Source: Octopus vulgaris (lineage: Eukaryota). Taken from it: a DNA stretch of 64,000 nucleotides. Of the stretch, positions 1,808 through 58,050 are shown piece by piece; position 1 is the stretch's first letter; each line of letters starts with the position of its first letter. The stretch lies in the NCBI GenBank assembly GCA_951406725.2, contig OX597826.1, positions 38,006,001 through 38,070,000 of the forward strand. Direction: 5' to 3'. The notes below the pieces were generated by a model. The model had not been told where the DNA came from. It saw only the letters and a list, made by a program, of their open reading frames with translations, and made no database searches. The position numbers and the translations under genes are program-made.

Positions 1808-2280
1808 TCATCATCATTGTTCGACCGTGGTCGAGATAATGGAATTTACTATGTTACGCCAGACTTCATCATAGCATTACAGAGGTCCTGTTGCTGGATG
1901 CCTGTATCCCTGGAGATTACATCAGGGTAGGAGAGTGTGCGCCCTCTGGTATTGCGAGCAGTTGGCTTCCAGAGGAGAAGAGTAGAAATTACCTCGTTTT
2001 CAGCTCTACAACAATGTCCAGCAAACTGGACTCTTCTACCTTTCACAAGAGATGATGCAGGTGGTAGTTTCCCATATATTTGTACTTTGGTTGGATGACG
2101 CTTCCACGAGAGATTTTGAGCTCTCATAAGGAGGTGAGTGTAAGTTCCATCCAACCGCCTCTCAAGCTTCTTTGAAAACGTCCAGGTTTCTGAGCCATAT
2201 AGTAGAATTGGTTCGACTGTGGCTTTGAAGATTTTAAGCTTGAAATCTCTACTTAGATTTGATGACTAGATCTTGATGTA
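1808..2280 (-). mobile_element. 5'-truncated RTE-clade LINE 3' end
   Basis: Minus frame reads LKIFKATVEPILLYGSETW...LDGTYTHLL...FAGHCCR...LLLWKP, the typical RTE RT C-terminus; short (TGA)n tail at 1808-1819. Confidence 0.85.
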
Positions 2281-10091: not shown

Positions 10092-10488
10092 CATACACAT
10101 ACGTATATATATGTATATATGTATATATATATACATTCATACATACATACGCATATATTATACTATCATCTCTTCTCCATTTTTATCAAAATTCTTCAGT
10201 TTTATGGGATTTCTTTCCATAAAATCACAACACACCATATGCAAATATATACATACTATATTGTATATTGATATATATGTGTGTATGTGTGTGTATACAC
10301 GTACATTTATACCTATATATATATATATATATATACCAATTAAGGACTGAACACGAAAAGTGGACAGTCAACATGCTAGATATAGACGTCAAATCGTCAT
10401 TCACCACAAAAGATTATGTTCTCAGATCAAACTCAACACAAAACCATAGCAATAAACAAGTGAAAAATATACGAAATAAAATAATTAC

Positions 10489-10553
10489 CCATGTACTAAC
10501 TTAGTTTCAGCTGTTATTTTCCGCAAGGAAAACTGCAGCCATCATCAGCATGG
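10489..10553 (-). ncRNA. Type I hammerhead ribozyme, copy 1
   Basis: Exact reverse complement of 11089-11153. Confidence 0.85.
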
Positions 10554-11088
10554 TCCGTTATAAATGTAATTTGCTGGACTAGATGCAAACACGATACCGA
10601 AATATCGCGTGCATGGAGTTCAGCCTATTACATTTGAATATATCTTTCAAATGCCTTTACTTTGGCGCGTTGAAACCCGAGGAAACTAGCCTGCAGCTAA
10701 TAATTAGCAGCAGTTAATTTATCGGTTAGAGAACATATTTATTTATATAAAATTAATTAAGGGTAGAAATTGATATTTATCAATTAAGACCAGTGGTCTA
10801 GCATATTAAAAAAGAATCCGAAGATTAAAATATTTATATATACCAATTAAGGACTGAACACGAAAAGTGGACAGTCAACATGCTAGATATAGACGTCAAA
10901 TCGTCATTCACCACAAAAGATTATGTTCTCAGATCAAACTCAAAGCTAATTATTAGCTGCAGGCTAGTTTCCTGCGCCAAAGTAAAGGCATTTGAAAGAT
11001 ATATTCAAATGTAATAGGCTGAACTCCAAGCACGCGATATTTCGGTATCGTGTTTGCATCTAGTCCAGCAAATTACATTTATAACGGA

Positions 11089-11153
11089 CCATGCTGATGA
11101 TGGCTGCAGTTTTCCTTGCGGAAAATAACAGCTGAAACTAAGTTAGTACATGG
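11089..11153 (+). ncRNA. Type I hammerhead ribozyme, copy 2
   Basis: ccatg CTGATGA t ggctg (ca gttttcc ttgc ggaaaat aa) cagct GAAA cta agt tag TA catgg: stems I-III pair, core intact, GUA cleavage triplet at 11146-11148. Confidence 0.85.
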
Positions 11154-11594
11154 GTAATTATTTTATTTCGTATATTTTTCACTTGTTTATTGCTATGGTT
11201 TTGTGTTGAGTTTGATCTGAGAACATAATCTTTTGTGGTGAATGACGATTTGACGTCTATATCTAGCATGTTGACTGTCCACTTTTCGTGTTCAGTCCTT
11301 AATTGGTATATATAAATATTTTAATCTTCGGATTCTTTTTTAATATGCTAGACCACTGGTCTTAATTGATAAATATCAATTTCTACCCTTAATTAATTTT
11401 ATATAAATAAATATGTTCTCTAACCGATAAATTAACTGCTGCTAATTATTAGCTGCAGGCTAGTTTCTCGGGTTTCAACGCGCCAAAGTAAAGGCATTTG
11501 AAAGATATATTCAAATGTAATAGGCTGAACTCCATGCACGCGATATTTCGGTATCGTGTTTGCATCTAGTCCAGCAAATTACATTTATAACGGA

Positions 11595-11659
11595 CCATGC
11601 TGATGATGGCTGCAGTTTTCCTTGCGGAAAATAACAGCTGAAACTAAGTTAGTACATGG
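11595..11659 (+). ncRNA. Type I hammerhead ribozyme, copy 3
   Basis: Identical to copy 2, 506 bp downstream. Confidence 0.85.
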
Positions 11660-11897
11660 GTAATTATTTTATTTCGTATATTTTTCACTTGTTTATTGCT
11701 ATGGTTTTGTGTTGAGTTTGATCTGAGAACATAATCTTTTGTGGTGAATGACGATTTGACGTCTATATCTAGCATGTTGACTGTCCACTTTTCGTGTTCA
11801 GTCCTTAATTGGTATATATAAATATTTTAATCTTCGGATTCTTTTTTAATATGCTAGACCACTGGTCTTAATTGATAAATATCAATTTCTACCCTTA

Positions 11898-11957
<60 letters not shown>

Positions 11958-12023
11958 ACACTTGCCAAAGATGCCCATGTGGTAGGTGAGCAAACTTGCT
12001 ACCACACAGCCACAGGGATAGAT

Positions 12024-49584: not shown

Positions 49585-49800
49585 AAAGTTAATCCAAACA
49601 AGAAAGCACAAAAAAACACAACAACGCGAGGACGTGGAACAAATATAGTATTATTGGACGCTCAGGAAAGAAGGAAAGAAGGAGGGTTTAACGTTTCGAG
49701 CGGAGCTCTTCGTCGGAAACATAGGAGAAGGAAAGATCCAGAGAAGGGAAGACAGAGGGAAAAAATCGCCAACGGTACACACGAGGTCGCATTTTGAAAG
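49585..49800 (-). mobile_element. PLE-type terminus with minimal HHR (49686-49720)
   Basis: Minus: gttt CCGACGA a gagc tcc gctc GAAA cg TT aaac; related to the 34835 motif; inside (TA)n. Confidence 0.7.
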
Positions 49801-49812
49801 ATATATATATAT

Positions 49813-50031
49813 GACAACAAAAGAATGAATGAGACCTCGATGTTATGTAAAATAGATGAATTTATCTATGAATATAATATGTGACAATTAGTTAGTTGTC
49901 ATAATAAAACTTAGAGTTTCGGATGCTAGGGCTGAAGTCTGCTCCAGCATCTTATCATAAGATGTGCGAGCATATTTCAGCCCCGGTATCCGAAACTCTG
50001 AGTTTTATTATGATAACCTCCTAATTGTCAC

Positions 50032-50036
<5 letters not shown>
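49813..50036. mobile_element. Head-to-head PLE-type terminus palindrome (49876-50036) joined within the HHR core
   Basis: Arms of about 80 bp, centre 49956; arms carry gatg...atcc GAAA ctc t (g/a)ag TT; arms only about 80% identical. Confidence 0.7.
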
Positions 50037-50065
<29 letters not shown>

Positions 50066-50307: not shown

Positions 50308-50633
50308 TGTGTGTGTGTGTGTGTGTGTAGGGTTAAGCAACAAGTTGCTTAGCCACATACCGAAAATTTAGAAATAGCAGTCAAAGATCGCTTATTCCTA
50401 TTTTCTACAAATATAGCTCTAGATATAACATTTACTTGCAATTCACATATGCAAAAAGAAGGGAAAATAACAAAATCAAACAGTCTTCGGTTTATTGTGG
50501 ACGCGTTTCTGGGTTAGAATTATAAAGAACTCATTCCCGTCTTCAGCACAAATGCTATTTACCTACCTTTTGCACCTCGATCCCGTGGGAGAGAGAGAAA
50601 GAGAAAGAGAGAAAGAGTTTAAAACTAGATATT

Positions 50634-55680: not shown

Positions 55681-57912
55681 TTCATCACATTTTTTCCAGT
55701 TGGTATAAGATGAACAATTTGATTGTGATTCTTGATTCTGTAGATTTGGTGTAGTTTTTAATTGCCTCCTATGAATTGTAATAAAGTCTGCTACTGCGGT
55801 CTTTTAATGTTATTTAAGAAGAGATAAATTGTTCTTTATTACCAAAAGCTCGTTTCTTCTCTAGAATACATTATAACAGACAGAGAGATTATGAAGTCTG
55901 TGTTAAAAATAATAAATACATTACAACTTGAGGTTTGAGATACTAAAATATTAAAACATTCCAAAAGTAAATAAAAGGGAAAACTTTCAGAAAAACTTTC
56001 CAAAGCTTAAGCAATTTTATCTTTAACTTTGTATAGTTCATTTACAAATGAAGAAAATCCAAGTTTACATGTAATATAGGTGACCATGCTGAAGTCAATT
56101 ATAAATAGACATACACTGGTGCCAAAGATAGGATTATAGTTTTTAAATTGTCGAAGTTGATGAGAAACTAATATCATTCCGAAGTTTTTTCAGTTCTTAA
56201 CCAACTTCGTCACAGAAATTAATCAGACTTGAAGACTTCTAATTCCATAATTTGACAATTTCTGTTTAAAACTATAATTTGATTTCTCTACATTGCTCTC
56301 AAAAGGAATATTGTTATTTAGCTAACTGTAAATTAATATCTTTAGAAACATTGGGACTGCATTTACCTTTATACACGTTGTTGTGAAAAATATTTGAAAA
56401 CGAGATGGTGGTGCTGTTGCCCCAGAAAGCTGTTTCACTGTTCACATCATGGTTTCATATTTACAAAGCTTTTATCACCTACTCACTGAATATCTTCAAG
56501 TGAAGTGTATTGTCATTGCATTTGTTGATGAAGTAAAAGTATGATGATAAATATTCCAACAATAAACATCCCTTGGTCACAACCACAATTTCTTTGATAA
56601 CTCTTTTGACATTGCAAAGTCAAATTAAAACATCACGCAGAAGATTTTATGCGAAATAAGCCTTGAGGTAAAATAAAGAAAATAGAGGATCGTAACGTAA
56701 CGTTGAGGAGAGCTTCCAACATATTTTAAAGTGAATTTACTCTGAATGCAAAGATGTTGGTAGCGGTGTGTTAGAAAGACAACCTAATTAAGGAAAGAAA
56801 TCATTAGAAATTTTAATTAATTACATTCGGAGAAATTTGAATTAATTACATTCGAATCGGTTCACTTTGACCTTATCTTTGGACAAACAATGGTGTCCGA
56901 CCAACAAACTTACTCTGTTTATTTGCATATGTCTTCATCATATCAACCCAATTATTTCCACTTTCACGGTAAGCGGGTAATTATAAAGCGAAGAAATCCC
57001 CAGACCATAATCGTTTAATTCTCCTTAACTTTCGCCATAACAATGTTTCGAAGCTTTATATACTCAGACCGACATCGCCAGGTTTATTTTAAACTTTTAT
57101 GTCCAATATTTCCAGCTTCATATGACATCAATAATTTATAATATCTTGTTACAGTCCATCCTTTCCCCCTCGCCAGTAGGTACCCTTTCACCCACCCCCC
57201 CCCCCCCACTGACAATAATAAATGCACTTTTAAGAGCCTCCTCTGAGGATTTTTCGTTTTTGCATGTGCTCTTTTTCACGATGTTTTATCTCCCTTTGGA
57301 AACTTCAAAAGAGTCATCTTTTTCTAATGATATTCCGTAGAATAGAAATAATTTGCATATCGTACAGAGATAAATATGAAAAATTATTTTAATGCTGCGT
57401 TAGATGATTCATTGAACATTTTATTGGACGAGGTCTTTGTCCTTTAAATAGAATTATCTGGATATGTGCATGATTATGCATGTATGTGTGTTTGGGGTTA
57501 GCAGAGAGAGCGAGAGATATTAATAAAGAAGTGATCCAAGGGGGATGGAGAATTAGCAAGTAATACAGCGGTGCAAAAGTAGGAGTGTATCCGTTAACAG
57601 CTGGCCTGGTGCAATCCCATCGTTACTCAAGCAACGAGATCAGAGCAACAATTACAGACCGAAATACAAATGGTGACAGAAGAAGGTTTGAGTATATTTA
57701 ACAGGGACAGGTTTTATGCTTCTCCATGGATAATATCGATCAGTGATTAGGGGGCAGCACAATAGAGAGATGACATGGTACTGAATACGTAAAAAAAAAT
57801 TGTTAAAAATGATTGAAAAAACCAAATACGTGTACACCTTTATGTGTGAATGTATGTTGGCGTCTGTCTACACACACACACACACACACACACATATAAG
57901 CACACATGCATA

Positions 57913-58016
57913 TATAATTTAGGGTATCTAAGAGATACTGTATTACTTAATGTGGTTTGGGAGTCAGATTTTGGCTGCTATTTCCAGCGTGGCGGTATCT
58001 CTTAGATACCCTAAAT

Positions 58017-58020
<4 letters not shown>
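57913..58020. repeat. Short inverted repeat (26-28-bp arms)
   Basis: TATAATTTAGGGTATCTAAGAGATAC ... GTATCTCTTAGATACCCTAAATTATA. Confidence 0.85.

Positions 58021-58050
<30 letters not shown>

Follow-up and report, generated by a model that had tools for sequence, protein, structure and literature searches.

An ORF-free 506-nt unit occupies positions 10328-11911 of the window, the 64,000-nt stretch of Octopus vulgaris DNA analysed here. It forms two arms that meet head-to-head within (TA)n, an inverted one of 616 nt and a direct one of 967 nt. We consider it probable that this array is a recent insertion of a non-autonomous Penelope-derived repeat (a non-LTR retrozyme), copied in trans by a Penelope-like reverse transcriptase (RT)/GIY-YIG enzyme from an RNA longer than the unit, with reverse transcription starting at internal UA tracts and not at the ribozyme cut. 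The class of non-LTR retrozymes is already known, and its derivation from Penelope-like elements (PLEs) has already been argued in print (10.64898/2026.07.22.740005). The array is ordinary in this class, and an unusually clean young insertion that makes the questions of partner and template testable. Which enzyme moves animal retrozymes, and whether a circle serves as the template, are the questions it addresses, as it retains an inverted head in the manner of PLEs, a pair of fixed ends inside the unit and its (TA)n target, singles out individual nucleotides (x166, x257 and the helix III palindrome) and offers in its unit a small substrate on which circular and uncleaved linear templates can be compared with purified PLE protein.

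As far as literature searches reach, this would be the first retrozyme family described in octopus: the literature searched, with subscription journals, repeat libraries and some supplements outside its scope, contained no report of retrozymes or hammerhead elements in cephalopods, the papers listed for hammerheads or Penelope-like elements being Craig et al. and one on twister. The supplement of PMC7229834, which shows further invertebrate retrozymes, could hold a cephalopod example, and the unit may already be present as a repeat-library entry. The repeat annotation of O. vulgaris includes 31 recently active Penelope-like families, and the words 'hammerhead' and 'ribozyme' are absent from it.

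Architecture and age of the array

The unit repeats with a period of 506 nt; its numbering, x1-506, begins with the first base past the predicted cut (window 11149-11654; Table 1). The arms are joined 5'-to-5', so that both 3' ends face outward into (TA)n (10314-10335 and 11906-11955). These flanks, (TA)11 and (TA)25, leave no discernible target duplication. Differences between copies amount to three events in 1,583 nt, namely an extra C at 10682 (left arm) and 10971 (first part of the right arm) that the middle unit lacks, an 11-nt deletion between 10973 and 10974 (x321-331) in the right arm, and T>A at 11029. This one substitution in 1,583 nt points to a young insertion, and the octopus rate given in PMC13282606 would put its age at about 0.2 My, provided that the copies were not homogenised by conversion. 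On the circularised unit no stretch free of stops exceeds 36 aa on the plus or 60 aa on the minus strand.

The observations of the original prediction, which was made from the letters of the stretch, stood up to this mapping, and its interpretation did so in part. Three identical type I hammerheads, two of them head-to-tail 506 nt apart and one inverted, were recovered by motif coordinates and descriptor, as were the lack of an ORF and the (TA)n flanks, and the description as a young, non-autonomous, hammerhead-bearing tandem of the non-LTR retrozyme kind is supported. The units are indeed nearly identical, although they differ by slightly more than the few bases that had been stated; likewise the place was correct and the extent (10336..11906) too short, as element-derived letters reach 10328 and 11911.

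Two further observations concern the surroundings of these features. Just 3' of the cleavage site, ATGG|GTAATT (11149-11160) resembles a 5' splice donor and is followed by a U-rich stretch; the 5' regions of PLEs often carry an intron near the ribozyme. To the right of (TA)25 lies a short interspersed repeat fragment (11956-12016), which the ORF listings also show at about 14500, 40850 and 59950, and the (TA)n target may itself lie within this older repeat.

Table 1. Features of the array in window coordinates (x, position in the 506-nt unit).
Feature	Position	Strand	Remarks
Left (TA)n run	10314..10335	.	shares its inner 8 nt with the first TATATATA tract of the unit (x159-166)
Inverted arm, 616 nt, 1.2 units	10328..10943	-	x58-506, then x1-166
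Hammerhead motif 3	10489..10553	-	predicted cleavage between 10494 and 10493
One-base head-to-head junction	10944	.	links x58 (left arm) with x293 (right arm)
Direct arm, 967 nt, 1.9 units	10945..11911	+	x293-506 with 11-nt deletion, x1-506, x1-257
Hammerhead motif 1	11089..11153	+	helix I 11089-93/11149-53; CUGAUGA 11094-11100; extra U 11101; helix II 11102-11133; GAAA 11134-37; near-palindromic helix III strand 11137-47; GUA 11146-48
Cleavage-to-cleavage monomer, 506 nt, 33% GC, 66% paired as circle	11149..11654	+	fold z about -7 to -8
First insertion-end site, CTTAATT then TATATATA (x159-166)	11298..11314	+	used by left arm
91-nt segment between end sites	11315..11405	+	ends in second site CTTAATT..TATATA (x252-257), used by right arm
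Hammerhead motif 2	11595..11659	+	predicted cleavage after 11654
Right (TA)25 run	11906..11955	.	shares its first 6 nt with the second TATATA tract of the unit

A PLE-type hammerhead ribozyme

The three identical motifs read CCATG-CTGATGA-T-helix II-GAAA-CTAAGTTAGTA|CATGG. Their cores begin at 11094 (+), 11600 (+) and 10548 (-), and cleavage is predicted after 11148, after 11654 and, on the minus strand, after 10494. As RNA they comprise CCAUG / CUGAUGA / U / helix II (5 bp, 2x2 loop, 7 bp) / GAAA / CUAAGUUA-GUA / CAUGG. A stricter descriptor requiring helices I, II and III matched exactly three times in the window and not once in 30 block-shuffled windows. Rfam returned no hammerhead family over the whole window at the gathering score, and at E<=10 over 10300-11960 it gave no hammerhead and six chance snoRNA/miRNA matches; the hammerhead call therefore rests on the descriptor and the folds. 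A 20-nt ribozyme pattern was found at no locus in metagenome contigs or in viral contigs.

PLE-type (minimal) hammerheads are distinguished by an extra base inserted after position 9 and before 10.1, a long helix II, a helix I of 4-5 bp and a palindromic helix III (PMC4209133). The octopus motifs have the extra base (U after A9), the long helix II, a 5-bp helix I and the palindromic helix III, while the conserved G10.1-C11.1 pair of this type is replaced by a G-U wobble at 11102/11133, a departure that speaks against activity. The stems had originally been thought fuller than those of minimal PLE motifs; compared with the motifs of PMC4209133, the ribozyme instead bears the hallmarks of that minimal type. 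Since such hammerheads cleave weakly even as dimers (PMC4209133) and eight of nine predicted Xenopus retrozyme dimers showed no cleavage in vitro (10.64898/2026.07.22.740005), cleavage activity of the octopus ribozyme is far from certain.

Predicted folding of the unit

Ribozyme folding was predicted with ViennaRNA, whose models are free of tertiary contacts. In a single motif the core CUGA pairs with UUAG of helix III (P 0.91-0.93) and the active helix III reaches only 0.02, so that a lone ribozyme is predicted to block itself. For a two-copy RNA (11080-11670) the minimum free energy structure is a double hammerhead, with P 0.68-0.73 for the helix III duplex, 0.01 for a monomeric helix III and 0.53-0.62 for the crossed helices I, while in the circular monomer the core block returns (P about 0.79). 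The ribozyme is thus predicted to be inactive as a single motif and to form a double hammerhead in two-copy RNA. The ends of the monomer are held together by helix I in the predicted fold.

The linear monomer folds at -146 kcal/mol (z -7.0, 100 shuffles), and the circle gives z -7.9 on the plus and -7.2 on the minus strand (40 shuffles each). The minus-strand value is nearly as strong, which we count against the Penelope-retrozyme reading; on the other hand, the plus fold contains 19 G-U pairs and one A-C mismatch versus five and four in the minus fold, and 19 versus 5 G-U pairs point to selection on a plus-strand RNA, beyond DNA palindromes alone. All four inverted pairs that had been proposed as hairpins exist as sequence, two of them with loops of 1 and 2 nt as written; AGACCA/TGGTCT is absent from the centroid fold.

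Insertion ends and target

None of the four arm ends lies at the cleavage site (x0). The outer ends sit at two internal TATATA tracts 91 nt apart (x159-166 and x252-257), which are, among the three alternating-AT tracts of the unit, the two preceded by CTTAATT. The 91-nt segment between them is, by analogy, a putative counterpart of the PLE 'tail' (cf. PMC11167929). The second end site recurs in other copies with other flanks in public runs. Within the window, the motif CCT[TA]AATT precedes (TA)n in 3 of 144 strand-counted runs, two of these being the array itself and one independent (0.17 expected), a lead only, as the motif was widened after its independent site was seen. The TATATA-tract ends could also stem from microsatellite seeding or from recombination with (TA)n. 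The predicted fold pairs x55-62 with x326-333 and thereby places the stop of the left arm and the deletion of the right arm in the same helix, which, speculatively, may mark structure-induced stalling of the RT.

A multi-copy family in public sequence runs

Of 24 public runs listed, 20 contain at least half of the unit's words; they come from 8 studies and carry 4 organism labels. The contigs of four of the 20 word-positive runs (X1, X2, X9 and X16) were compared with one permuted unit. The two DNA runs yielded 1,974 and 1,839 contigs with identities from 99+% down to below 90%; these are contig counts and not copy numbers. The roughly 1,900 contigs in each DNA run, which grade in identity and have differing flanks at the same end, indicate that the unit is repeated at other loci as a multi-copy family, the diverged relatives of which retain its hairpins. 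No difference at >=5% was listed for the catalytic core in the four runs. Helix III stays self-complementary despite alterations in its middle (11142 G>T, loss of 11142, an A inserted after 11139), one X2 contig has two both-sided changes in distal helix II and is also without the extra U, and diverged versions of the tetraloop hairpin retain a short stem around TCCG.

For exits of contigs from the unit, 21 of 279 loose ends were listed. Among these, exits at 11409-11414 lead into TA-led flanks unlike those of this window in ten contigs of X9 (with mixed flanks), one of X2 and two of X16, and exits at 11319 lead into (AT)n in one contig of X2 and three of X16, which could be this same locus. 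X16 exits at 11300 and 11391 lead into unlike sequence; the other well-supported exits listed for the DNA runs lead into divergent forms of the same unit, and the share running on into unlike sequence is 0 in both DNA runs. Pieces bridging the second end by at least 31 letters on each side were two of the eight shown for X9 and none of the eight shown for X1, with 6 and 18 other letters. Diverged copies thus also continue past the second end into a following unit, so that the short closed form cannot be a deletion private to this locus. A strand-change joint for the inversion (10943/10945) was not listed among the contigs of the four runs. X2 and X16, which may be RNA or DNA runs, contain near-identical contigs across the ribozyme; these show neither strand nor ends and were set aside as evidence of expression. 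Among the listed word-positive runs none is recorded as RNA. A joint that 'goes back 506' was rejected as evidence of circles, since it reflects where the unit was cut and occurs in DNA runs too. Contig depth, which cannot rank parts of the unit, peaks upstream of both end sites.

Relation to retrozymes, satellites and autonomous elements

Judged by its sequence, the array falls under the working definition of a non-LTR retrozyme: it consists of consecutive complete type I hammerhead units without coding capacity, the unit is small, low in GC and self-paired, and it occurs at other loci. As in the metazoan non-LTR retrozymes of coral, mussel and axolotl and of a vertebrate survey, the tandem is ORF-free with one type I hammerhead per unit and belongs to a multi-copy family, and no LTR, PBS or PPT is seen. 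The 506-nt unit lies within the 51-972 bp of the 2026 survey (10.64898/2026.07.22.740005) and exceeds the 170-400 nt of the circles in PMC7229834. Monomeric cleavage is reported for most invertebrate retrozyme motifs (PMC7761336), whereas the octopus ribozyme is of PLE type and predicted to act as a dimer only; its core is moreover predicted to be self-blocked in the circle. The inverted head and the two fixed internal ends are absent from the retrozyme descriptions examined. According to a 2020 review (PMC7761336), metazoan retrozyme repeats have no conserved motif pointing to a partner; the two end sites of the array are a candidate for such a partner-recognition motif.

A further counterpart is found in non-autonomous Chlamys elements such as MRC1, which like the array are PLE satellites with pLTRs and multicopy head-to-tail insertions, but which belong to a green alga, mostly have no canonical hammerheads and target (CA)n/(C)n (PMC8557442). 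A plant-type LTR retrozyme (type III hammerhead in LTRs, PBS, PPT, 4-bp TSD) was rejected, as the hammerhead here is of type I and the unit runs back into itself. In Dolichopoda pDo500, with a unit of about 500 bp, and in newt satellites a hammerhead also lies within the satellite unit, but these form long satellite arrays, in contrast to the three-copy dispersed insertion with inverted head described here. The newt motif cleaves as a dimer (PMC7229834).

An ORF with RT and GIY-YIG, as expected of an autonomous EN+ PLE, was found neither in the unit nor among the 148 of 189 window ORFs of higher complexity, which gave no Pfam match to RT or GIY-YIG and three weak matches below the cut-off. From its sequence, the array is thus not an autonomous PLE and appears to work like a PLE passenger.

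Mobilising enzyme and template

EN+ PLE insertions show partial tandems, an adjacent inverted 5'-truncated copy and an optional tail of 30-40 bp, and their microsatellite bias hides target duplications (Craig et al., 2021, PMC8557442). For one PLE, the protein was shown to cut AT-rich DNA on both strands and to extend each of them, and reverse transcription has two internal starts downstream of the ribozyme, which define the tail, with uncleaved RNA as the main template (Frangieh et al., 2024, PMC11167929). The octopus array likewise combines a PLE-type ribozyme, a partial tandem next to which lies an inverted 5'-truncated copy, a choice of two 3' ends located downstream of the ribozyme, a microsatellite, AT-rich (TA)n target and no discernible TSD. 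Its differences are the missing RT/GIY-YIG ORF, a tail of 91 nt versus 30-40 bp and the G-U at the base of helix II; furthermore its two ends are TA tracts matching the target, whereas the RT start of the anole PLE is not homologous to the cut DNA. As the inverted 5'-truncated copy, the two alternative ends and the (TA)n target are published marks of PLEs, the mobilising enzyme was, by this analogy, very likely a Penelope RT/endonuclease. Mobilisation by a PLE RT, which the original prediction had considered, is the most likely route.

We propose that a tandem source array would be transcribed on the plus strand into a multimer, in which adjacent copies could pair their palindromic helix III strands into the double hammerhead of the folding prediction; this would release a 506-nt monomer that a host ligase could circularise. 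Following PLE biochemistry, the PLE protein would then nick both (TA)n strands and prime from each nick at x166 and x257, where the UA tracts of the RNA match the target. That both start sites match the target suggests that nicked (TA)n ends anneal to these tracts and so act as primers. The resulting copies of 616 and 967 nt, joined 5'-to-5', cross one and two cleavage sites unbroken, as can be read from the locus. A cleaved linear monomer is therefore ruled out as the template.

The present locus fits linear-multimer and circle templates alike. In the linear version one uncleaved RNA of 3.4 units would have been primed twice, with 126 nt missing between the arms, and we lean slightly towards it; in the other version a circle would have been copied more than once round, for which we see a sizeable chance that falls short of an even one. 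A more elaborate account, in which the locus is the fresh trace left when a Penelope enzyme reverse-transcribed a circular RNA, with a multimer-only ribozyme, a self-locking 506-nt circle, and two UA tracts behind CTTAATT that anneal telomerase-like to nicked (TA)n so that both strands are primed 91 nt apart, is unlikely in its entirety. If true, the circle-template and UA-tract reading would supply the recognition signal that animal retrozymes reportedly lack and identify the mobilising machinery.

Alternative explanations

The full model of the original prediction, a sub-case of the explanation preferred here, takes the arms as rolling-circle cDNAs of a 506-nt closed RNA made by double-hammerhead cleavage and host ligation. 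It is possible, if doubtful: both arms are longer than the unit, have arbitrary start points and run through cleavage sites without a break, helix I holds the monomer ends, the predicted core block (P about 0.79) would keep a circle from re-cutting, and the retrozymes of coral, mussel and axolotl yield abundant circles (PMC7229834). The same map results, however, without strand displacement from an uncleaved 3.4-unit linear multimer primed twice, uncleaved RNA was the main template of the one PLE tested in vitro (PMC11167929), and the three differences between successive passes over shared positions fit a heterogeneous linear template or later mutation slightly better than one circle. That the unit represents no more than the pseudo-LTR region of an autonomous PLE, and the locus a heavily 5'-truncated stack of termini, strikes us as quite improbable. 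PLE-type ribozyme, tail-like double end and inverted head all mark autonomous PLE insertions (PMC8557442, PMC4209133) and the listed X16 exits at 11300 and 11391 enter unlike sequence; yet the sequence beyond the tail reaches the same ribozyme within 190 nt without an ORF, overlapping diverged contigs tile this stretch and two of the eight X9 pieces shown bridge the tail end, and the best-supported exits in the DNA runs are diverged units or TA flanks, with no share of unlike sequence in either.

Growth at the DNA level, by unequal exchange or fold-back repair of a satellite or fold-back repeat in which the ribozyme is an inert relic, would agree with the many short DNA palindromes of the unit and its good folding on both strands, and satellite growth by unequal crossover has been discussed for retrozymes (10.64898/2026.07.22.740005). 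We nevertheless hold it to be very improbable in view of the G-U asymmetry in favour of the plus-strand RNA, the compensatory helix II change and intact core in relatives, the dispersed copies with differing flanks at the same end, and a head-to-head junction whose asymmetry fits double priming. This asymmetry (x58 to x293) also speaks against an artefact of assembly or long-read fold-back, by which only the tandem would be real, as do the different end sites of the arms with different unique flanks and the description of inverted heads as a feature of PLEs. Such structures do cause assembly trouble (PMC8557442), and the four runs listed no strand-change joint, but a joint from a single locus is easily lost among about 1,900 contigs, and an artefact can be given hardly any weight.

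Other elements in the window

Hammerhead-like sequences occur at two further places on the minus strand. The one at 50490-50555 is a single CUGAAGA...GAAACGCGUC motif with a 5-bp helix I, a palindromic helix III and a weak helix II, likely a remnant of another PLE terminus; the variant at 49680-49720 has a CCGACGA core, a 4-bp hairpin and GAAACGUUA, and fails the descriptor. A 138-aa fragment at 1852-2265 (-) has 195 homologues with up to 88% identity and presumably corresponds to the C-terminal part of a LINE RT protein. At 49870-50045 a short element with imperfect inverted arms of about 64 nt adjoins a (TA)n run. A tiny fold-back element of a different family lies at 57910-58035, with two identical 26-nt inverted arms that face outward into microsatellite; its right end is 85% identical over 33 nt to the second end site of the array and is followed by (TA)n, repeating the anatomy of the array in miniature.
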